Shown here in pieces: positions 53,031-64,000 of a stretch of 64,000 bases of DNA. The position numbers were made by a program, and so were the translations under genes. Positions within the stretch are counted from its first letter, which is position 1; each line of letters opens with the position of its first letter. The notes under the pieces are model-generated. The model worked only from the letters and a program-made list of their open reading frames with translations, ran no database searches and was not told the DNA's origin. This DNA is from Candidatus Melainabacteria bacterium 17Bon1m (GTDB lineage: Bacteria > Cyanobacteriota > Vampirovibrionia > Obscuribacterales > Obscuribacteraceae). Location: the NCBI GenBank assembly GCA_032128875.1, contig JAVLKG010000001.1, forward strand, positions 736,001 through 800,000. The letters are read 5' to 3'.

Positions 53031-53639
53031 TTACCGAACTTTGAACATATTAAGCAGTGGGCTATACCACTTGCGTGCTTTGAGCGTTTCAACGTCAGCT
53101 TTTGCTTCGTTGAGCAATCTTGAGAGTCTTGCGTTTTCTAACTCGTTGACGTTAGCGATGTCTTCGAGATAATCGCGCTCGACTTTCAATTTAGACAAAG
53201 CTGTCATCAAATACTTGCGCTCTGTCACTGCTGCATCGCGCTCGCATTCTTTGCTCTTAAACTCTCTAAGCTCTCGCTCCATTGCCGGCATCTTGCTGAG
53301 CTGCCAGTACTGATTGACTACAATCTGCTTGATTTGAGCATTCTCTTCGAGCGTTTCTTGTAGCTTTTGCAGTAAAGCAATTACACGACGTTGTAAATAG
53401 GCATTCTCTTCATTAGCCTTAGCGAGTATTTGCTGTTCGCGATACTTCTGGACCATTTCCAGAACTTGTCGACGAATGCGTTTTTCTCGGGCTAGTTTGG
53501 CGCGGTTGTCCTCTCCGTCTGCCACCACCTCTGATGCCCACTTGAATATGTGGTCGAGACCTTCAAGTCCGACGGCCTCCTGGTGTGCATCTGGAGCTAC
53601 AGGGAATTGTTGTACGGCGTTAGATTGCTGAATGGTCAC
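53031..53639 (-). CDS. Hypothetical coiled-coil protein
   Basis: Strong RBS; E/K/R/L-rich heptads; amphipathic C-terminus RKWYSPLLNMFK. Confidence 0.8.
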   Translation of the reverse strand: MTIQQSNAVQQFPVAPDAHQEAVGLEGLDHIFKWASEVVADGEDNRAKLAREKRIRRQVLEMVQKYREQQILAKANEENAYLQRRVIALLQKLQETLEENAQIKQIVVNQYWQLSKMPAMERELREFKSKECERDAAVTERKYLMTALSKLKVERDYLEDIANVNELENARLSRLLNEAKADVETLKARKWYSPLLNMFKVR

Positions 53640-54711: not shown

Positions 54712-54793
54712 ATCCGCAGCCGGCTTTCGGCGGTCTTAGTGGGAGAAACCGCATCGCTGTGCGTAAGACCACCAACGACAGGCAGGGGCGGAT
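54712..54793 (+). promoter_or_regulatory. Candidate structured leader of the exported-protein/pilin locus
   Basis: Nested pairings ATCCGC/GCGGAT and GGTCTTA/TAAGACC, plus internal GCCG-GCTTT-CGGC and GTGG-GAGAAA-CCGC hairpins. Confidence 0.4.
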
Positions 54794-54907
54794 TTTCGTA
54801 CATTAAGCGTAAGTTTGAATAGCCAGGTGCAGTGTCATCAGTTGTGCCGCAGCCCTGAAAACCAGACCCAGTCCCAAAAGACAACCGAGCGTAGCTCCAA
54901 AAGACCA

Positions 54908-55690
54908 ATGAAAACGATGAACATCACAAGCAATGCGACAACGAGAAAGGCGACGAAATGCCTCACAGCCGCTGCTTTTGCTGTCTTTGTCTCGGTTGGT
55001 TTGGCTACTGCCGCTCAAGCGCAGATTGATACTCTGCGCAATCCGACCATTCCTGGAGCCATGTACTCCTCGCCTTATACCTGCCCACCTGAAGGCTGCC
55101 CGCCTCCCCCCGGAGCCGGCTCTGCACCACCTCCTGTGACGCAAGGACATTACGGCGCGCCTGAGTCCATGCCCTGGGTGAGAAACATTCCCGCCACTCA
55201 AATTGACCAATCCAATTCATATGTAGGGCTTCCTTCGAACCAAACGTTGGCTGCTCCTTATACTCTGGGTTCGCAATTGCAAGTCCCACACCCGCCATCC
55301 ACGCCTGGCGGCGACTACGGTCAAATACCAGGACCGGCAAACTTCTACGCTCCCCCTGCCGCTCTTGTCAATATTTGCCCGCAAGGCGGAATGCCTGGAG
55401 ATCAAGCTCCAATCCAGAGATGGGGCGGACAAACAACTAGAGACCTCGGTCTTCCTAGATGCCACGGCTCGCAACTCACCGATTTCGGCGACAAGCTCAG
55501 CCAAAAACCAAATTTATGCGCACAGCCACAATCATCCCAAGATGGACCGCGCCCGCAAGGTCAAGGTCTTATGGGTGGTGGATCTGTACGCGCGTCCATT
55601 GGGGGCGCGCAAGCCGCAACCGACCTGCACGGCAATCGCACGCTGTTCAGAGGTCAAACCCGTTCACGCCTAACAATCGCTCCTTATTAA
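54908..55690 (+). CDS. Exported Pro/Gly-rich protein, paralog A
   Basis: Signal peptide ending AAQA-Q; CPPEG, PVT.GH, PWV and QIDQ motifs shared with the next gene. Confidence 0.8.
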   Translation: MKTMNITSNATTRKATKCLTAAAFAVFVSVGLATAAQAQIDTLRNPTIPGAMYSSPYTCPPEGCPPPPGAGSAPPPVTQGHYGAPESMPWVRNIPATQIDQSNSYVGLPSNQTLAAPYTLGSQLQVPHPPSTPGGDYGQIPGPANFYAPPAALVNICPQGGMPGDQAPIQRWGGQTTRDLGLPRCHGSQLTDFGDKLSQKPNLCAQPQSSQDGPRPQGQGLMGGGSVRASIGGAQAATDLHGNRTLFRGQTRSRLTIAPY

Positions 55691-55717
55691 ATGAAGGCTT
55701 TCAGGAGGCCACACGCC

Positions 55718-56689
55718 ATGCTTAATTCGAGGACATTAAAAGCAGTAATCGCAGCAGCAGCGCTGTGCTCACTGAATGTTCCTGTGTTTGCACAGGGAAC
55801 GACCACGCTACGGACACCACTCATACCGGGAGCGATTCCTTCGCCACCCTTTGTATGTCCGCCAGAAGGACAGCCGCCAGCGGTTGGTGATGGACCGACT
55901 TCTGCTCCAGTGACCCCAGGTCACTTGAACTCACCGGAACTGCTTCCGTGGGTACCGGCAATTCCTTCTAACCAAATCGACCAAGGTTCGTCCGGCGTCC
56001 CGCTTCCTTTTGGACCGCCCGTCGAAATGCCGCCTGGCGTTCTCGGACCGGCATTGACTCCTTTTATACCTAAGACACCGTCTACCCCCGGGGCTGACCC
56101 AGGGTCGATGACGGCACCGATGGGATTCATCAATCCTGCCGATCAAATGAATATCATCCCGACTGGAGGACTTCCGGGAACAGGTGGTTACAACACAACT
56201 ATCAATAAGATTCGCCGCGGCGGACAAGAAACCCACCAATGGGGTATCCGTGAAAACCAATCAGTATTAGGTGGCGGCGGACCGACCCAAGACATCATCA
56301 CTGAGTTCGGCTCCCTGGCCGGCTGGGGTATGCCATACGGCGTGCCTACCGGCAACGGATACAACAAGGGACCTGCCGGTTACAACGATAGTTTGAGAAC
56401 CAGCGCCATTGAATTGGGCGGCGGTCAGCGCTTCAAAGTTGGAGATTGCAAAATCCCAACCGGATCCACCCTTCTCGACTACGGCACATCTGCCACACGT
56501 ATGAATGGAATCGGGGCTCTCAACGCCTGGCAATCGACTGAATTCGGTCAAGGCTTCCGCCGTATGCCGCTATACAGCTCGAAAACCACTGATTTTGGCT
56601 ACCCCTACACGATCTTTGATCCAGCCAATATCAACTATCAAAAAACTGGTCAACACCAACTGCCTACAGCAATTGAGACGAATTTCTAG
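55718..56689 (+). CDS. Exported Pro/Gly-rich protein, paralog B
   Basis: AGGAGG RBS, signal peptide ending VFA-Q; repeated T[DE]FG-like motifs. Confidence 0.82.
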   Translation: MLNSRTLKAVIAAAALCSLNVPVFAQGTTTLRTPLIPGAIPSPPFVCPPEGQPPAVGDGPTSAPVTPGHLNSPELLPWVPAIPSNQIDQGSSGVPLPFGPPVEMPPGVLGPALTPFIPKTPSTPGADPGSMTAPMGFINPADQMNIIPTGGLPGTGGYNTTINKIRRGGQETHQWGIRENQSVLGGGGPTQDIITEFGSLAGWGMPYGVPTGNGYNKGPAGYNDSLRTSAIELGGGQRFKVGDCKIPTGSTLLDYGTSATRMNGIGALNAWQSTEFGQGFRRMPLYSSKTTDFGYPYTIFDPANINYQKTGQHQLPTAIETNF

Positions 56690-56705
56690 CCAAAAGCTGG
56701 AAAAA

Positions 56706-56740
56706 GGGGGGGATCTTCCCATGATGGTGGGAAATCCCCC
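56706..56740. other. Intergenic hairpin
   Basis: GGGGGAT.TTCCCA-TGATGG-TGGGAA.ATCCCCC between paralog B and the Q-rich gene. Confidence 0.55.
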
Positions 56741-56839
56741 GATTTCAAAACCCCCGACGATTCCCTAATATGAGCACATCAGGCAACCACATGGTTTCCG
56801 AACCGCACAGTTTCCCTTCTATAAGACCGAACCAAGAAA

Positions 56840-57601
56840 ATGAAAGCAGTCGACACCACCAAACAAATCGCCAAGGAAGCAGCTACTAAGCTTGCAATTT
56901 CCTTGACCGTTGTTTCGGTAGTCGCGCTTTCAACCTCGCCAGTAATGGCTCAAGGTTTGCAAGGCGGTCAAATGGAACAGCTCTCTCAAATGAGCGGACT
57001 GGGCGCAGACCAAGAATCACTTCTGCCACCGGAAGTGGTGCCAATGGATTCGCAAGCAGCTCAACAGCTCTCGCAATCCCAAGCACAAGCAAGACAGATG
57101 GGTGGCTACGATGCAGTTCAACCGGGTGCCACGCCGATGAACGCTCGCAACAACAGACAAGATGCATTCAACGCTCTTATGGGCCGCGAAGATCTCAGTC
57201 AACAAATGAATCCGGCACAATTCCAGCCGATGAACGGAGCACAAATGGACCAGTACGCACCTGGTCAGCTCCTGCCCCAAGCTCAAAACCAAGCCGGTCA
57301 ACAGTTCAACCAACAACTAGCTCAACAACAACAGCAAATGGGCGTAACCGCCTGGCAGCAACCAGGACAAAACGGAAATTCCTTCCCAGCCCAAAATCAA
57401 ACGCTCGCCGGAAAAGTCAAAAAAGCACCTGTTAAAGGTCTCGCACGAACCGGCTTAGCTCACACTCTTACCGGCTTAGCCGCCTTCGGCGCCGGCGCCT
57501 ACACCATGTCCTTGATGAGAAGCCCCGCGATGCTCTACTCCGGCGGAATGATGGGATTCGGACTCGGCAATTACGCACTACGCAACGGTTTCAGGTTTTA
57601 A
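56840..57601 (+). CDS. Exported Gln-rich protein with C-terminal Gly-rich hydrophobic hairpin
   Basis: Signal peptide ending VMA-Q, Q/G/M-rich body, and C-terminal TLTGLAAFGAGAY...GGMMGFGLGNYAL. Confidence 0.8.
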   Translation: MKAVDTTKQIAKEAATKLAISLTVVSVVALSTSPVMAQGLQGGQMEQLSQMSGLGADQESLLPPEVVPMDSQAAQQLSQSQAQARQMGGYDAVQPGATPMNARNNRQDAFNALMGREDLSQQMNPAQFQPMNGAQMDQYAPGQLLPQAQNQAGQQFNQQLAQQQQQMGVTAWQQPGQNGNSFPAQNQTLAGKVKKAPVKGLARTGLAHTLTGLAAFGAGAYTMSLMRSPAMLYSGGMMGFGLGNYALRNGFRF

Positions 57602-57616
57602 ACCAAGGTGATTACG

Positions 57617-58321
57617 ATGAACGCCAAATTCGCAATACTCTCAACCACGATCGCAATCATCGCCGCTTCGAGCACGGTACTGCCAGCTCAAGCTCAGCAC
57701 AGAGATCGCGGAGCAAGATTTGATTTCGCTCCTCAGATTTACAAACTCGAAGAATCAAAAGTTCCTCCAGGTTACGGCGCACCGCCGCCTAGTAATCATT
57801 CTGTTAAGCACGCCAGCATGCCCTCGAGAAGTTCCCTGCTCGGAATCGATCCAGCAATGCTTGCAGCTGCCCGTCCAGTACAACGCGGTCCCCGCGTAGC
57901 ACCGATTGCAGCAACGACAGTAGCTGCTTCGCCGAGCTGGACAAATGCGGTTCCGTTCTTGAATCCATTCGCTCCAGTAGCGAACAAGGGTCAATTCGGT
58001 CAACCACTCAACCCGAATGTTCCGCCTGTAGTGGCTTCATTGCCTCCGCAAGCGAGCAAAGCCCAACCGAGGACGATTGCTCCGTCTTCAAACACCAGCC
58101 TCTCGGGCAAAATCAACCCCCGACGCTCATCTACTGCAGTTGCCGCTCGTCGCGTACCGCGTGCGAACGCCTTGGCTGCAAAACAAGGAGCTCCTATCCA
58201 GAGCTACGGCAACAATTTCGGCTACACAGCCGGTTCGACAGCCCCAGTGGGCAGCGGTGCTAGCACCAGCGTAACCGGAAATGTATATGGTCGAGTCCTG
58301 TACAAATCAACAAAGCATTAA
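57617..58321 (+). CDS. Exported Pro/Ala/Ser-rich protein
   Basis: Signal peptide ending LPAQA-Q; similar architecture to 43277..43906. Confidence 0.8.
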   Translation: MNAKFAILSTTIAIIAASSTVLPAQAQHRDRGARFDFAPQIYKLEESKVPPGYGAPPPSNHSVKHASMPSRSSLLGIDPAMLAAARPVQRGPRVAPIAATTVAASPSWTNAVPFLNPFAPVANKGQFGQPLNPNVPPVVASLPPQASKAQPRTIAPSSNTSLSGKINPRRSSTAVAARRVPRANALAAKQGAPIQSYGNNFGYTAGSTAPVGSGASTSVTGNVYGRVLYKSTKH

Positions 58322-58378
58322 TTCAGACGCCACGGTCAACACAACATCTCAACGAAAAACCTAATGGAGGGTAATTCA

Positions 58379-58810
58379 ATGGCAACCACTATCAAATCAC
58401 TGGCGAAGAAAGTAGCTTCTTCCCGTCACTTCAAAGTTGCCTCACGCGTGGGCTTCCTCCTGGCTCCTCAACTGGTCCTTATGGCTATTGGTGTATATGA
58501 CCAAGCAGCTCATGCACAAGGCTTGGTTGGAGCTCCGGTCGATCCCCGTTACGGGCAATCAAATGAAGTAGGTCAATTGGCAGACTTCGGTTATGACACC
58601 GCTCGCGACATCTCCCGTGTAGTTACCGCACTTTCAACAGTTCCTTCCTCGATGGCTGGAATGAAGATCGCCTTCGGTCAACGTGACGGTGGTGAATCCG
58701 CGATGAACGTAGCCAAAGGTCTGGGCATCGGATTCGGCGGACCGACAGCGGTTCACTTGATCGGTACCTTCGCTATCAACAACTTCGGCGGTCTCGGCGG
58801 CGGTCTCTAA
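58379..58810 (+). CDS. TrbC/VirB2-like pilin precursor
   Basis: GGAGG RBS; long basic leader ending AAHA-Q; core 'AGMKIAFG..DGG....VAKGLGIGFGGPTAVHLI' matches the VirB2/TrbC two-helix pattern (recognised by eye). Confidence 0.6.
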   Translation: MATTIKSLAKKVASSRHFKVASRVGFLLAPQLVLMAIGVYDQAAHAQGLVGAPVDPRYGQSNEVGQLADFGYDTARDISRVVTALSTVPSSMAGMKIAFGQRDGGESAMNVAKGLGIGFGGPTAVHLIGTFAINNFGGLGGGL

Positions 58811-58981
58811 AGAGAACCTGCAACCAAGAGATTCACCAAAAAGTTGAATCGCAAAGTCCACAACTAGAAAAAACTAGATAGGAAAAACTATAGAGAATTC
58901 GGCATTGCTCGCCGGACTTCTCCTGGACAGAAATTGAACCGACGAAATCACGATTTGTCGGAATCATCTGAAAGGTCTGAA

Positions 58982-59011
58982 GGGCCGGTATCGCCAAGAT
59001 ACCGGCCTTTT
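58982..59011 (+). terminator. Rho-independent terminator after the pilin-like gene
   Basis: GGCCGGTATC-GCCAA-GATACCGGCC-TTTT. Confidence 0.75.
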
Positions 59012-59136
59012 GTCCCGGATGGGAATTTCCCCAATGACAGGGTCTTGCAATATTCATATTATTTGTCCATAGCCAGGGAGGCACCACCCACGCCGAACTG
59101 AGCCATGGTTCTAAATTCAAAACAGAGACTCACCCC

Positions 59137-62100
59137 GTGAACAAAGGCAACAAACTCCGAAAACGAACAATAAAGGCGCTCTTCGCGTTATTCATGACGC
59201 TGACGCCTATGTTTGTGTTTGTAGGTTCGGCACTTGCCCAAACCAGAGAGCCCACGCTTTCCGACAGTCTTCCTGTCGATCCAGGCGTCGGCAATCTTTC
59301 GCAAGGCGCCCAACAAACTCAAAACACCGTCCCGAGTGCATATGCTGATGCACCCGGCGAAGTGCCTCTCGTTTACACGGCTGCGACAAACAACACAACT
59401 GGCGTCATTCAGAATGTCACCAACACTCTTCTGGGCACTGGCGAACTCGGCTACATCAACGATACCTACATGGGTATCAAGAGATTCTGGGGCGATGACA
59501 TCATCGGCAACTTGTTCCAGAACATCGGTCAATTACTTGGTAAGTGGATTTCAGAGTGGATCAACGGCTGGGTAGCCGACACGGTCCGCTTCCTTACTGC
59601 ATTTCTGCGTACCTTTGTTTTGAACCCGAACATCGCCGTCAACGGTATTCAGAACGGTCCTGGTGCTGGACAAGCTGACGACATCTCTCCCTACATCCGC
59701 GCCGCTGCTGACGTGATGTACGGTATCGCTGTCGACTTGCTCCTCCTGCTCTTCATTCTCTGCATTTGGAAATTCTGGGCAGAAGCCTCCTGGCGCGGTG
59801 GCGGCGGACTCATGGGTTCTGTCGGTCGCTTGATTTTTACAGCAGGTCTCTTGCTGGCTTGGCCAACTATTTATGCCTTCATCATTCAAATCACGAATGA
59901 AATGATTCAGGCAATCTACTTCAACTCTGCAGACGACATCATGCGTCTGGACGCTGCCATGGCTTCCGCAGTTAAAGGCGGTTTGATGGCAGGCGCCGGA
60001 CTTCTCGCCCATGCGTTCGCTCCGATCGTTGGCGGTGCTGCCGGCGGTTTGGCACTCGGCTTGGTTGGTGAAATCGTCGCTTTTGCCGGTCTCGTAATTT
60101 ACTTGATCATCGGCGGCATCTTAATTGCGCAGCTCATCTACATCTTGGTTTTGAAAGCAATTCAAACCGCGCTGCTCACTGCACAATATATGTTTGGTCC
60201 CATCTTCCTGGTGTTCTTCGCAACACCTGACACGGAAAACGTGGCCACTGGTTATGTTAAGTCCTTCGTTGAAGTCAGCCTCTGGACATTCGTCTGGGTC
60301 GGCTTGTTGAAGATCATGGTCATCATCCTCTTCTCCGACTTCAACCCCTGGGGCAAGATCATTATGGCGATCGGCGTTCTGCAGCTGATGATTCAGGTGC
60401 CGTCGTTCCTCGCTCGTGCTCAAATCAGCCCGATGTCCGATTTCGTTTCAGCCGGTTTGATCACCGGTGGATTGCTCGGCATGGGCAAGGCGCTCGCCAA
60501 CAAGGGCGGCGACCTAATGGACAGATTCTCCAAATGGCGCGGTAGTTTGCAAGACGGCGGCGCTCGTGGTCCGCAACAAACTCAATCCGTCAAGATGAAC
60601 GGCTTGCCGCATGCTCCGCAAGATCCGGAAGCATTCAACAAGATTCAAAACGCAGCCAAAGGCGATTTGAACAACGGCAACAAGCCTGGCGACAAAACAA
60701 AGACAGAGAATCCAAACGGTCAAAACCTCAAGCCTCTTACAGAAGCTGACAGAAAGAAACAAGAAGAGGAAGAGAAGAAGAAACGCGAAGCTCTGAAGAA
60801 TGGCAACGGTATGCCTGAGCAAGCCAAAGCCGTAACCGGCGCTGATGGCACCACTACTGCAGTTCCACCTAAGAAAGGCGATCTGGCAGAAGGACTGAAA
60901 GACGGTCTCAAGGGTGGTTTGGCAGCAGCAGGTGTTGGCGCAGTTTTGGCTGGTGCACAAGCTTCCGACGCACAAAAGAAAAATCAAACCGGCACCACCG
61001 CTTCCGAGCAAGCTGCCAAAGATCGTGCTAACGAGATGGCTGCAATGTTCGGTCTGGATACCAGCGGACAAGGTCAACAAGCTGGTCAGCAAGCTCAAAA
61101 GCCGATGACCGAGAAAGAAAAAGAAGATGCTGAAAAGGCTAAGGCTGCAGCAGCTCTCGGTGTCAAAGATTCCAAACTGCAAGTTCAAGACAAGACAAAG
61201 ACCGACGGAAAAACCAAAACCGACGAGAAGAAAAACGAAAACGCAGTTCCTGTCCTTCCGCCGGCAAGTGGTCTTCCTGGCGCCAAGAAAGGTGAAGGCG
61301 TAGTTCCTCCTTTGAATGCAGTCGGCGCTGACGGCAGACCGCTCAAGGTCACCGAAAAAGGCGACGGCACCGGCACTGACAAAGGCGTCAACCAAGTTGA
61401 AGCCGAGCAAAAGAATGAAACTGAAACCGCTGGTCTCAACGCACAAAGAGATACCAACCTGCGCGTCAATCAAACCGACGACAAGAAAGGTGTCGCTGGT
61501 AAGACTGGTGAGCCGAAGCTGACCACCGATGCCAAAGATTTGACTGGCAAGAACGCCGCTCAAGGAAGAAACGGCGTAGGTCCGGTTGTTCCTCCGCTCA
61601 CACCGCCTAAGGGTGATGCTGCAGGTACCGGTGCAAACCAAGGTCAAAACCTCAACAACGGCAAAACCACTGAAACTCTTCAAGGCGGACCAGAACAGGG
61701 AGCAACCGGCACGCAAGAGCACGAACAAATTGTCTCTCTCGGTCAAGGCGTCAACGGACAAGGCATCAACCTTCGCGTTACCCAAACACCGATCAACGCT
61801 GGTGGACGTACCCCTGTAAATCAACAAACCGCTCAAGTTGTTCCGCCCAGCAGACAAGCTGGAACCATGGGACAACAAACCGCTTCGCCTATTTCCGGCG
61901 CAGCTGCCAACCTCGGACAAACCACTGCGGCGGCTGCCACCATGGGCAACCCGGACGTCACCACCATGAACGTTCCGGAGGCACTGCAAGATATCGCAGG
62001 TCCCGGTAAGGTTGACCCCTTCACCGCATTCGACCACTCCGGATACGGCGGTGTTGCTCCGAACATCATGGCTAAGTTGATCCGTACTTACGACGGCGTA

Positions 62101-64000
62101 TCCATGGGTAAATCGCCTGACGGACAAGCAACCATCGTTGGTTCACCAAGAGGTGTTGCTCACGTTCGTTTCGGCGCCAATGCCACGCAAGAACAAAAGG
62201 CTATGCAAATTGCCTCAGCCGGGTATGCACAAACCATGACCGATGACGCTGAAGCATTCGATGCAGCACGTCAATCTGCAATCGACTCCGGCGCTGACCA
62301 GCCCAAAGGTTTCGCAGATAGAGTTGCAGGAAACTGGCTGCAATACAAAGGCTCGAGCTGGAGAGAAACCTACCGCGCCAAGCGTCAGTTCCAACAAGCG
62401 ATGTTCTCGGAAGCTGTCAGCGGCGCTCAAGCGTACGTGACCGGCGACGAGGCAGGCGCCAACGCATTCACCGATCACCTGCGCACACGTTTCGGCGATA
62501 TGACTCCCGAAAAACAAGCCTGGATGATGCACACATTGACCGACAACACATCGCCAGAATCCGGCTTCGGTACAGCTCGTTGGCCCGCAACGGACGCCTT
62601 GGTCTCTGCCAACATGGGCATCGATCCATACAACAGAGCAGCAATGGCCAGAGTACTCGGCACCAACATTCCAGTGTGGCAGCGTCCGCTCGCCGCCAAG
62701 GGTATCGCCAACTACATGAAGGGTGTAGTCGACGAGCGCGCAACACCAGACACGACCAACGAAGAAAGAGCAGCAATGGCCGGTGGTTTGACTGGAAGAC
62801 TGTCTCCAGCCATCGTAGATGCTTGCGCAACAATCCAGCAGTTCGACGCATCGCCTGAAGCGACCTTGAAGAATCCGAACTTCGTCAACGCCGTTGCTAT
62901 CAGAGGCGCATCGTACGCAAGAGATCCCAACGTACAAAACCCGATGAGACAAGCCTACGACGAAGAAATGCTCAAGAGCAGAATGTTCGGCGGCGGCGGC
63001 TCAACCGTAACAACTCAAGTATCCGGCAGCATCATCGGTGGTGGTGGCGGCGGTGGAGACAACGGCGGTGGCTACAGCAGAGTAGTCGATCTGCCTCCTC
63101 CAACCGATGGCGGCGGCGGAATGGGCGGCGCTCAATTCTCCGGTTCCTTCAACGTACCGCCACAACGCGGAACCACTCAGCAAAATCTCACATACCGTGT
63201 CAATCCGGGTCAATCACGTGGCGTAAGCAACGGTGCTGTACCGAACTTGACCGCAGAATCGCTGCAAGGCAGAACCGAAACTCAAGTCAATATCGTCAAC
63301 CCGCAAGCCGGCAATCAGGTTGTGAACTTCGAAGCAGAAGCTATCGTTCAACAATCCAACTCCGCATTGCCGCCGGTAATCAACCAAGGCTTGATCCCGA
63401 GAGTGCCGACCAACACAGTCAACGTCGTCAACGTCAAGCTTCGCCATCAGCAAGGCAACGCCAACGGACAAAACATCAGCATGTCCGTAAACGGCGAAAC
63501 CCAAGGGTCATCCGACGTCCGCATCGGCCGCGTCACTGAATCCGGCAACAACCAACCGCAAGTGATTCAATCCGATGCTACCGTAGAAGTTCTGCACAAT
63601 GGTGGCGGAGACAACGGTGGAGCGATTCAGCAAGCTGTGTCCTCAGTAGCTCAAACAGCTCCTGCAGCACTGCCTCCTGGTGTAGACATCTTCGTTGAAA
63701 TGCAACAATCCGGTTTCACCGATGCACAAAGACGCGATCCCAACATCGTTGCCGGCGCATCGCAAATCTACAACGCTTCCGGTGGTGACAGACAAGCGAT
63801 GGTAACGGCAGCATTGACTGCACGTGCTCTTGGTTCTGACAGCGGCAGCTTCGGTATGAAGTCTGTACAAGTTGTTCAAACCATGATCGACGCAGGCTGG
63901 AAGCCGAACCAAATCTCTGCTCACGATATTCATATCGCTGAGATGATTGTCGACCACGGTGGTGACACTGGCGCTGGACAAGGCGGCGGATATCCAACTC
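59137..64000 (+). CDS. Giant VirB6/TrbL-like polytopic membrane protein with long C-terminal extension (>1,620 aa, truncated by window end)
   Basis: Not in the ORF track because it has no stop in the window. Manual translation from GTG 59137 gives a signal peptide (..GSALA-Q), a TM block with 'QTALLTAQYMFGPIFLVFFATPDTENVATGYVKSFVEVSLWTFVW...QVPSFL' typical of TrbL/VirB6, then more than 1,100 hydrophilic aa. Confidence 0.75.
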   Translation, partial: MNKGNKLRKRTIKALFALFMTLTPMFVFVGSALAQTREPTLSDSLPVDPGVGNLSQGAQQTQNTVPSAYADAPGEVPLVYTAATNNTTGVIQNVTNTLLGTGELGYINDTYMGIKRFWGDDIIGNLFQNIGQLLGKWISEWINGWVADTVRFLTAFLRTFVLNPNIAVNGIQNGPGAGQADDISPYIRAAADVMYGIAVDLLLLLFILCIWKFWAEASWRGGGGLMGSVGRLIFTAGLLLAWPTIYAFIIQITNEMIQAIYFNSADDIMRLDAAMASAVKGGLMAGAGLLAHAFAPIVGGAAGGLALGLVGEIVAFAGLVIYLIIGGILIAQLIYILVLKAIQTALLTAQYMFGPIFLVFFATPDTENVATGYVKSFVEVSLWTFVWVGLLKIMVIILFSDFNPWGKIIMAIGVLQLMIQVPSFLARAQISPMSDFVSAGLITGGLLGMGKALANKGGDLMDRFSKWRGSLQDGGARGPQQTQSVKMNGLPHAPQDPEAFNKIQNAAKGDLNNGNKPGDKTKTENPNGQNLKPLTEADRKKQEEEEKKKREALKNGNGMPEQAKAVTGADGTTTAVPPKKGDLAEGLKDGLKGGLAAAGVGAVLAGAQASDAQKKNQTGTTASEQAAKDRANEMAAMFGLDTSGQGQQAGQQAQKPMTEKEKEDAEKAKAAAALGVKDSKLQVQDKTKTDGKTKTDEKKNENAVPVLPPASGLPGAKKGEGVVPPLNAVGADGRPLKVTEKGDGTGTDKGVNQVEAEQKNETETAGLNAQRDTNLRVNQTDDKKGVAGKTGEPKLTTDAKDLTGKNAAQGRNGVGPVVPPLTPPKGDAAGTGANQGQNLNNGKTTETLQGGPEQGATGTQEHEQIVSLGQGVNGQGINLRVTQTPINAGGRTPVNQQTAQVVPPSRQAGTMGQQTASPISGAAANLGQTTAAAATMGNPDVTTMNVPEALQDIAGPGKVDPFTAFDHSGYGGVAPNIMAKLIRTYDGVSMGKSPDGQATIVGSPRGVAHVRFGANATQEQKAMQIASAGYAQTMTDDAEAFDAARQSAIDSGADQPKGFADRVAGNWLQYKGSSWRETYRAKRQFQQAMFSEAVSGAQAYVTGDEAGANAFTDHLRTRFGDMTPEKQAWMMHTLTDNTSPESGFGTARWPATDALVSANMGIDPYNRAAMARVLGTNIPVWQRPLAAKGIANYMKGVVDERATPDTTNEERAAMAGGLTGRLSPAIVDACATIQQFDASPEATLKNPNFVNAVAIRGASYARDPNVQNPMRQAYDEEMLKSRMFGGGGSTVTTQVSGSIIGGGGGGGDNGGGYSRVVDLPPPTDGGGGMGGAQFSGSFNVPPQRGTTQQNLTYRVNPGQSRGVSNGAVPNLTAESLQGRTETQVNIVNPQAGNQVVNFEAEAIVQQSNSALPPVINQGLIPRVPTNTVNVVNVKLRHQQGNANGQNISMSVNGETQGSSDVRIGRVTESGNNQPQVIQSDATVEVLHNGGGDNGGAIQQAVSSVAQTAPAALPPGVDIFVEMQQSGFTDAQRRDPNIVAGASQIYNASGGDRQAMVTAALTARALGSDSGSFGMKSVQVVQTMIDAGWKPNQISAHDIHIAEMIVDHGGDTGAGQGGGYPT

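Follow-up and report, generated by a model that had tools for sequence, protein, structure and literature searches.

The window analysed here is a stretch of 64,000 nucleotides from Candidatus Melainabacteria bacterium 17Bon1m (G000:C1:736001-800000). Near its right end the open reading frame (ORF) listing gave six co-oriented ORFs on the + strand, running from 54815 to beyond the window end, which were named g1-g6. The DNA farther downstream was read in the stretch L003 (G000:C1:790000-809999), where a window coordinate equals the L003 coordinate plus 53999, and yielded five further genes, g7-g11. The features are collected in Table 1. Genes g1-g6 probably form the 5' half of a type IV secretion system (T4SS) cluster that lies in the chromosome and spans eleven genes and 18 kb, a distinct and vertically inherited variant restricted to the Obscuribacterales. 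The cluster is a real, new T4SS variant, built partly from proteins of no known family.

Table 1. Features of the cluster and its borders (coordinates of the window unless L003 is given).
Feature	Coordinates	Strand	Description
Coiled-coil-like protein	53031..53639	-	202 amino acids (aa), oriented divergently to the cluster, no Pfam family
g1	54815..55690, probable start ATG 54908	+	exported, Pro/Gly/Gln-rich, 8 Cys, conserved C-terminal ...TIAPY/F
g2	55691..56689	+	exported, Gly/Pro-rich, 332 aa, conserved C-terminal half ending ...TNF, orphan family
g3	56840..57601	+	exported, Gln/Ala-rich, Gly-rich hydrophobic C-terminal region, aromatic end ...NGFRF
g4	57608..58321	+	exported, Ala/Pro/Ser-rich, basic C-terminus
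g5	58364..58810, probable start 58379	+	small exported two-helix hairpin; 46-aa leader, 97-aa mature part
Hairpin	58980..59010	+	10-bp, G+C-rich, then TTTTG; terminator-like, behind g5
Sigma-70-like promoter match, 10/12	59034..59062	+	ahead of g6; consensus only; 3 in region against 3.5 expected
g6	59137..64000 and on	+	1688 aa, ends 203 nt past the window
g7	L003 11092-11835		DUF2225 protein, Pfam 1.6e-6
g8	L003 11920-12258		112 aa, two hydrophobic segments, overlaps g9; VirB3-like by place, size and topology only
g9	L003 12251-15070		939-aa VirB4/TraC-family ATPase, 2.2 kb past the window end
g10	L003 15119-15778		219-aa bitopic protein; VirB8-like by place, size and topology only
g11	L003 15945-18896		983-aa VirD4-type coupling protein
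Palindromic repeats	52839 region; L003 10249-10271; L003 18902-18924		right after mgsA; after g6; after g11

A first-pass annotation of the window had proposed a T4SS-derived apparatus and had named the lack of any VirB4-like ATPase, nearby or in the genome, along with a lack of similarity of 58379..58810 to VirB2 or of 59137..60500 to VirB6/TrbL, as what would overturn the proposal. Such an ATPase was found shortly past the window end (g9), with a VirD4 coupling protein (g11) after it. Protein g9 was matched by the NCBIfam models TraC-F-type (1.4e-49), CD1110 (3.7e-44) and VirB4_CagE (5.6e-38) and by Pfam P-loop_TraG (1.4e-18), which places it in the VirB4 family, below the curated subfamily cut-offs. 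Protein g11 was matched by the Pfam families T4SS-DNA_transf (1.5e-18; 67 bits, cut-off 20.1), TraG-D_C (4.3e-8) and TrwB_AAD_bind, as is proper to a VirD4/TraG coupling protein. Among the other genes which that annotation had advised looking for downstream, VirB3- and VirB8-like proteins (g8, g10) could be named from position and topology only, and a relaxase gene was lacking at the locus. Its inference that unknown proteins replace or supplement the usual VirB5/7/9/10-type parts is in keeping with the profile searches: no VirB7, VirB9, VirB10, VirB11 or VirB1 family was detected with Pfam or NCBIfam in any ORF of the cluster, so that neither an outer-membrane core nor VirB11 is recognisable. 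The VirB7/VirB9/VirB10 core and VirB11 are not universal among T4SS classes. A 105-aa ORF between g6 and g7 was taken as spurious, having no orthologue in six compared loci.

The giant polytopic protein seen from 59137 onward in the earlier reading is g6, and its VirB6-like nature was upheld by fold. Following the signal peptide are a conserved periplasmic stretch, a six-helix VirB6-like membrane domain (about residues 148-433; six further hydrophobic segments at residues 193-426) and, over about 1200 aa, a C-terminal extension that is variable and of low complexity. Residues 1-480 were folded with a 39-sequence alignment. Foldseek against PDB returned R388 TrwI/VirB6 chains at all of ranks 1-7 (E about 1e-2, probability 0.98-1.00). 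VIA-align against 48,161 representative chains placed TrwI (7o3v_F) first, with Z 10.4, a root-mean-square deviation of 6.0 and 236 aligned residues over model positions 148-433, and the Legionella DotA protochannel (9ngy) second with Z 9.6, followed by I-BAR domains at 8.3. The predicted membrane domain was accepted as a VirB6 fold because the top two matches are VirB6-class proteins of solved T4SSs and because the gene stands in a VirB4 cluster. By sequence g6 had no Pfam TrbL/VirB6 match, its profile found nothing meaningful among PDB sequences, and the C-terminal 788 aa matched only Gly-linker regions of single-chain variable fragment chains there; g6 was absent from the ESM Atlas. The N-terminal 480 aa were 58-71% identical across genera (A2, A4), closer within a genus and down to 30% in the A4 paralogues, and the N-terminus was present in 54/57 and 3/3 genomes of two families. 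Open frames with a g6 match (at least 46% identity, not cut short) measured 1010-2384 aa. Elsewhere in the genome, an orphan 1137-aa protein (G000:C14:28882-32295; L093 6883-10296) carries a C-terminal VirB6-like membrane domain 41-42% identical to that of g6, and no T4SS genes were seen around it in the ORF list.

Several results weigh against the T4SS reading. All proteins of the cluster stay below the curated cut-offs of the NCBIfam VirB4 and coupling-protein subfamily models: g9 scored 168.8 bits against a cut-off of 567 for TraC-F-type, 151 against 325 for CD1110, 130.7 against 643.1 for VirB4_CagE (TIGR00929) and 30.5 against 1020 for TrbE, and the best NCBIfam type IV coupling protein (T4CP) model for g11, CD1115 VirD4 (3.8e-16), gave 59 bits against 250. 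Neither g8 nor g10 had a family match even at E 10, their likeness to VirB3 and VirB8 being one of position and topology, and a 7-sequence profile of g10 matched nothing among PDB sequences. The g6 model had a mean predicted local distance difference test (pLDDT) score of 58, with 70-85 in the membrane helices, which is low confidence overall, and helical bundles can reach a VIA-align Z of about 10 through arrangement alone. Expression of the cluster has no evidence from the sequencing runs either. In runs X1 and X2, labelled transcriptomic RNA-Seq, one identical 20.4-kb contig covered the whole cluster and contigs ran up to 181 kb; these 'RNA' runs probably contain DNA. Run X6 gave short contigs over g4-g5, though the runs were found with that very stretch.

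The distribution of the cluster bears on its inheritance. The gene order g1-g11 was the same in three other genera over the whole of the loci compared, and in two more within the extent of the DNA compared; the second family has the cluster in two pieces, g1-g6 and g7-g11, on different contigs. Orthologues of g9 were found in 23/24 and 3/3 sampled genomes of the two families (73-99% identity), and no match at E 1e-5 was found in any of 300 other genomes of the phylum sample. Searches with VirB4 and g5 did not find the cluster in the other sampled families of the class. The left flank is made of housekeeping genes (MgsA/RarA, YfhO-like), without an integrase, and MgsA/RarA and coiled-coil genes also lie upstream of g1 in another genus. 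Homologues of the coiled-coil gene stand directly upstream of g1 in G021 and G024, members of two other genera, and this gene may be a cluster-associated gene.

A mating-pair-formation (MPF) module of an integrative conjugative element, or a recently acquired mobile island, would account for the encoded VirB4 and coupling protein, which are conjugative hallmarks, and for a G+C content (50-55%) slightly above the contig mean (49%). The other results speak against it. In agreement with what had been observed at the left border, no integrase or transposase was found in the flanks and no tRNA within about 60 kb of the cluster. No relaxase was found at the locus: PF03432 matched only on contigs C17 and C27, and PF08751, PF03389 and PF01076 matched nowhere (MOBH, MOBT, MOBC and MOBB models were not searched). 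The same housekeeping flanks recur in other genera, presence is near-universal in two families, and identity falls from genus to family to second family. The best VirB4 among 72,556 plasmids, a Myxococcus 'TraC family' protein with only hypothetical neighbours on its plasmid, was just 22-23% identical to g9. With no linked relaxase, integrase or tRNA and near-universal presence, the cluster does not have the make-up of an integrative conjugative element or conjugative plasmid; that explanation is close to refuted and is held to be extremely improbable. Order-wide presence, conserved gene order, housekeeping flanks and the absence of tRNA, integrase and transposase genes argue for vertical inheritance instead.

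A DNA-uptake or DNA-release system for natural transformation, of the ComB or gonococcal-island kind, was also considered. T4SS-derived competence and DNA-release systems exist, and the cluster is chromosomal, conserved and without a relaxase in cis. ComB-type uptake systems, however, are not known to have a coupling protein and DNA-release systems generally need a relaxase, whereas here a coupling protein is present and conserved in the cluster, and no competence genes were seen beside it. This explanation was therefore given little credence, if somewhat more than the mobile island.

A second, paralogous T4SS-like cluster was noted in the same genome (G000:C3:872000-891999; L026 85-16609). 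Its genes encode an exported protein of 228 aa (SMA|Q), a lipoprotein-like protein of 662 aa, a VirB6-like protein of 902 aa, a giant of 1772 aa, DUF2225 and VirB3-like proteins, a VirB4 with 25% identity to g9 and a pair of small bitopic proteins; a coupling protein is not among its neighbours. The candidate homology of g4 to the first gene of this cluster was rejected (BLASTP E 13). Clusters of the C3 type are as widespread in the order as g1-g11, which dates the duplication before the radiation of the order.

Immediately before g6 lies g5, which was described at first as a small two-helix protein followed by its own terminator. The hairpin fold was supported by an AF2 model from an 87-sequence alignment (long helices 25-60 and 68-97, pLDDT above 90 in the helices); the inverted repeat and TTTTG behind the gene are present, but were not called by a consensus terminator scanner. 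Protein g5 is the best-conserved protein of the cluster: identities span 82-100%, and even those in the second family are 90-91%. Matches were obtained in 47/47 and 2/2 genomes of the two families and in 0/151 genomes of nine other families of the class, and several genomes carry tandem copies (2-4). It is small and exported, has a long leader, forms a hydrophobic two-helix hairpin and is encoded beside VirB6, VirB3 and VirB4; these pilin-like traits amount to resemblance, not membership, and are common to many non-pilin membrane proteins. Conservation, tandem copies, hairpin, leader and the terminator-like site behind the gene suit a major structural subunit. In the ESM Atlas the nearest named clusters, DUF4134 (0.89), TrbC/VirB2 (0.88) and DUF2976 (0.88), are T4SS pilin-like, which is a lead only.

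The identification of 58379..58810 as a VirB2/TrbC pilin, made in the first-pass annotation, found no support in the sequence. No Pfam match was obtained even at E 10, and g5 shows no sequence or profile similarity to PF04956 (TrbC/VirB2). Comparison by hhalign of the 87-sequence g5 alignment with a 33-sequence TrbC/VirB2 alignment, which was built from the true TrbC of the relative G016 and spans one subfamily only, gave a probability of 0.3%. Foldseek and VIA-align with the g5 model returned generic helical hairpins only (best E 2.5; Z 7.4), with no conjugative pilin outstanding, an unspecific result, and the g5 profile found nothing meaningful among PDB sequences. Near-invariance such as that of g5 is unusual for a pilin. 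A predicted complex of g6 residues 140-440 with mature g5 scored 0.00, which is no answer and counts neither way.

The g5 sequence is also not confined to the cluster. Its domain, laid out as a conserved periplasmic motif, helix, loop, helix and ...INNxGGLGGGL tail, forms the C-terminus of many otherwise unrelated membrane proteins. Among 1.84 billion representative proteins 180 members were found at E 1e-3; in most of the 150 matches listed the domain lay at or within a few residues of the protein's own C-terminus. Every named relative of g5 in the large databases was a 'hypothetical protein'. A scan of 29 longer members gave VIT in four and VWA_3, Peptidase_M56, Pkinase and TIR_2 in one each. 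C-terminal fusion to proteins so varied is not known among VirB2 pilins, and it fits a general membrane module. The fused copies have classically hydrophobic helices and a strongly basic loop, whereas T4SS-linked copies are much less hydrophobic, with Gly/Ser/Thr-rich helices and an acidic-neutral loop. Two kinds of member were inspected. One is a 993-aa protein (G000:C2:60835-63816; L042 10835-13816, - strand) with an N-terminal polytopic domain, VIT and a C-terminal g5 hairpin domain (56% identical), located upstream of a stressosome-like RsbR/STAS/kinase/SpoIIE gene set. The others, found in several relatives (L047-L057), are proteins of about 210-245 aa with an N-terminal Cys-rich zinc-ribbon-like domain (...C..W..M.....RFC..C...V.NLS...), a membrane anchor and a g5-like domain, and keep an A|QGLVG junction. 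As a membrane module this family is new, and the variety of its fusion partners is unusual.

These fusions bring in the most serious rival, in which the T4SS is real and g5 is not a pilin. Protein g5 would then be an inner-membrane module of two helices, specific to the lineage, that serves for oligomerisation or for docking other proteins; adhesin-like VIT/vWA, kinase, TIR, M56 and zinc-ribbon proteins would be anchored or recruited through its domain, and the machine would be pilus-less, like the VirB3/4/6/8/D4 systems of monoderms. That the same domain of about 97 residues ends both the 993-aa VIT protein and zinc-ribbon proteins of about 220 aa, its mostly C-terminal place among the matches listed with such diverse partners, the missing TrbC profile similarity and a component set without VirB7/9/10/11 all agree with it. 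The lower hydrophobicity of the T4SS-linked copies fits extraction from the membrane, however; tandem amplification, a long leader and a place directly before VirB6 are pilin-like; and the hosts are assumed to be diderm, so that some conduit across the periplasm is needed. On balance this rival was judged to be less probable than not, while deserving real weight. A pilin-like conduit subunit is retained as the leading reading of g5, and the 'pilin' remains a candidate because TrbC/VirB2 profile similarity is lacking and many membrane proteins unrelated to g5 close with this domain too.

Upstream of g5 are the exported proteins g1-g4. As first described, all six genes g1-g6 encode signal peptides cleaved before Gln: each N-terminus runs from a basic into a hydrophobic stretch and on to a small-x-small site, and the junctions from g1 to g6 read AQA|Q, VFA|Q, VMA|Q, AQA|Q, AHA|Q and ALA|Q. 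These sites were taken by eye and with a hydropathy script, with no dedicated predictor. In a crude genome-wide scan Gln occupied +1 in 95 of 1152 signal-peptide-like [AV]xA sites (8%), a rate from which six junctions out of six are far from chance. The Ala-Gln junction was kept in orthologues from other genera in 5/5 cases for g1, 5/5 for g2, 7/7 for g3 and 4/7 for g4; that of g6 was kept in 7/7, one being Gly-Gln. The six proteins are rich in Pro, Gly, Gln and Ala, and the statement that the four low-complexity exported proteins belong to no recognisable family was corroborated, since Pfam and NCBIfam gave 0 families for any of the six. Proteins g1 and g2 are paralogues (40% identity over about 170-200 aa). 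Orthologues of g1 were found in four other genomes with the aromatic C-terminus conserved; relatives of g2 numbered 187, those with names being all 'hypothetical protein' from Obscuribacterales/Melainabacteria metagenome-assembled genomes (MAGs), and a g2 homologue gave no lead in the ESM Atlas (best score 0.76). An aromatic last residue is conserved in g1, g2 and g3 (...APY/F, ...TNF, ...RF/RY), a hint that recalls outer-membrane-targeted proteins.

The coupling proteins and relaxases of the order give a lead on function. The coupling protein of the cluster, g11, is divergent (about 65-74 bits) and conserved in the order, which suggests a host-owned substrate as well. Two related modules in the genome (G000:C17:68700-72596 and G000:C27:5051-8422) each combine two ORFs, one small and one of 280 aa, with genes for a MobA/VirD2-like relaxase and a canonical TraG/VirD4 coupling protein (650 aa; 159 and 188 bits). 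No VirB4 was found with either module, and most genomes of the family carry comparable ones. The G000 assembly contains only two VirB4 genes, both divergent. Among 61 genomes of the order, the relaxase family was present in 45 (up to 9 matches, 26-100% identity; 0/3 in the second family), at least two T4CP matches in 48, and exactly two VirB4-family matches in 50, a canonical high-scoring VirB4 being found only in G016. By eye, 18 relaxase matches lay within about 3 kb of a T4CP match. The relaxase and coupling-protein modules plausibly dock on the host machine; matches in incomplete MAGs are not copy numbers, however, and the use of the machine by these modules is a correlation. Another orphan protein, of 871 aa (G000:C4:434994-437606; L116 9995-12607, - strand), shows coupling-protein domains weakly (about 31 bits) and adjoins a 1494-aa Ser/Thr kinase-cyclase-AAA-TPR protein.

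The machine could instead be a dedicated effector-translocating or predation/contact-killing apparatus, for which relaxase-module DNA transfer would be incidental or absent. The order-wide chromosomal T4SSs of other groups (Rvh of Rickettsiales, X-T4SS of Xanthomonadales, Dot/Icm of Legionellales) are mostly effector translocators, and for that reason this possibility was kept. Order-wide vertical conservation with an ancient paralogous cluster, a divergent coupling protein of its own with long extensions, and a variable giant VirB6 extension that is probably surface-exposed are all in keeping with such a function, and the runs with the locus bear the labels of plankton and algal-bloom metagenomes. 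A habitat label, however, does not testify to contact with prey; neither an effector nor a toxin-immunity pair nor a known secretion signal could be identified within the cluster or next to it; and the literature found gave no pointer to predation in Obscuribacterales. A full-text literature search, supplements aside, found no paper on a T4SS in this order. A dedicated effector or predation machine was considered rather unlikely, a little more so than the pilus-less machine.

In the proposed mechanism for the host-owned T4SS, the VirB3-like g8, the VirB4 g9, the VirB8-like g10 and the VirB6 domain of g6 would make up an inner-membrane channel and assembly platform. Protein g5, presumably abundant and highly conserved, would be pulled from the membrane and built on this platform as a conduit or filament, the role of VirB2 elsewhere. 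The exported orphans g1-g4 would take over in the periplasm and outer membrane from the VirB7/9/10 parts that are missing, a purely conjectural step that is a weakness of the scheme. The variable C-terminal extension of g6 may reach the cell surface or a target cell. A host-owned substrate, protein or DNA, would be fed into the channel by coupling protein g11, for which the DUF2225 protein g7 may act as adaptor, and the VirB4-less relaxase and coupling-protein modules would probably use the same channel for conjugative transfer. Taken further, the cluster could represent a ninth, host-encoded MPF class in Obscuribacterales, in which g1-g4 and g5 are non-homologous to VirB2/5/7/9/10, inheritance has been vertical for the life of the order, the channel is shared by minimal mobile elements carrying only a relaxase and their own T4CP, and the g5 domain serves across the lineage as a docking tag that brings adhesin-like (VIT/vWA), kinase and TIR proteins into this membrane assembly; this fuller scheme is put forward as a speculative and doubtful one.

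The apparent lack of a VirB7/9/10 core, with an assumed outer membrane, raises the question of how that membrane is crossed, and the four orphan exported proteins g1-g4 are concrete candidates for the task. The system belongs to the vertically inherited core of an entire order of non-photosynthetic cyanobacteria, known from sludge, soil, water and algal blooms, and therefore probably shapes cell contact or DNA exchange. With a host-owned VirB4 alongside many relaxase-plus-coupling-protein modules, the dependence of mobile elements on a chromosomal channel can be put to the test.

The palindromic repeats after mgsA, g6 and g11 belong to a dispersed element, GGTCGACGCCATGCGTCGACC-like, with 53 matches in the genome (up to 2 mismatches, both strands counted). 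It is probably a REP (repetitive extragenic palindromic)-like or terminator element marking the ends of transcription units.

T4SS diversity is usually described in eight classes defined on VirB4, according to PMC4027160. None of the curated VirB4 subfamily models scores the cluster VirB4 as high as its cut-off. The minimal VirB3/VirB4/VirB6/VirB8/VirD4 systems of monoderms (MPF_FA/FATA, e.g. CD1110/CD1115 of Clostridia) have the same detectable core and likewise lack VirB7/9/10/11, and CD1110 was the second-best NCBIfam match for g9 and CD1115 the best T4CP match for g11. Unlike them, the cluster scores far below the cut-offs, belongs to a host assumed to be diderm, has five exported orphans and a pilin-like gene before VirB6, and has no VirB1-like hydrolase that could be found. 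The F-type (MPF_F) supplies the best VirB4 profile for g9, TraC-F-type. F-type TraG joins a VirB6-like N-terminus to a large C-terminal domain, and the architecture of g6 resembles it; the cluster differs from the F-type in that g9 stays at less than a third of the TraC-F-type cut-off and in that no TraB/K/V/E/L family was detected in it. With R388 TrwI/VirB6 and Legionella DotA the fold of g6 residues 148-433 is shared at 11-17% identity, g6 being about five times longer than TrwI.

Within the phylum, the MPF_C system of Nostoc sp. PCC 7120 plasmid alpha has a VirB3-like protein, VirB4 and T4CP in one locus, as here, and both VirB4 proteins measure 939 aa. They are 19% identical (pairwise E 3e-7), which is weaker than the TraC/CD1110 profile matches. 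The MPF_C locus (PMC4027160) has VirB9 and TrbI/VirB10 homologues and a MobV relaxase and lies on a plasmid, whereas no VirB9 or VirB10 family was detected in g1-g11, and the cluster was not assigned to MPF_C. Vampirovibrio chlorellavorus belongs to the same class of non-photosynthetic cyanobacteria, and its T4SS, for which a role in the lifestyle was proposed (PMC4451040), had been offered as a precedent. It is a different system: according to PMC4451040 it is T-type, its trbE has its nearest counterpart in Nitrosomonas, most of it is carried by conjugative plasmids that also have relaxases, and it was marked as alien. By the VirB4_CagE/TrbE equivalog cut-off, g9 does not belong to MPF_T.

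A canonical Trb-type locus (TrbB, TrbC pilin, TrbD, TrbE) was seen in G016 (G016:C1:157000-168999; L121 2859-6964) besides the two order-specific clusters; its VirB4 scored 576 bits, and a second canonical VirB4 lies on the same contig. This locus shows the look of a recently acquired system in these genomes. The Rvh T4SS of Rickettsiales is order-wide, chromosomal and vertical, with duplicated components, an extended VirB6 and split operons. Although Rvh is a recognisable T-type with VirB7-11 homologues, in which the Obscuribacterales cluster differs from it, the latter has in common with Rvh an order-wide occurrence, a chromosomal place, vertical inheritance, duplicated components, an extended VirB6-like protein and a split operon.

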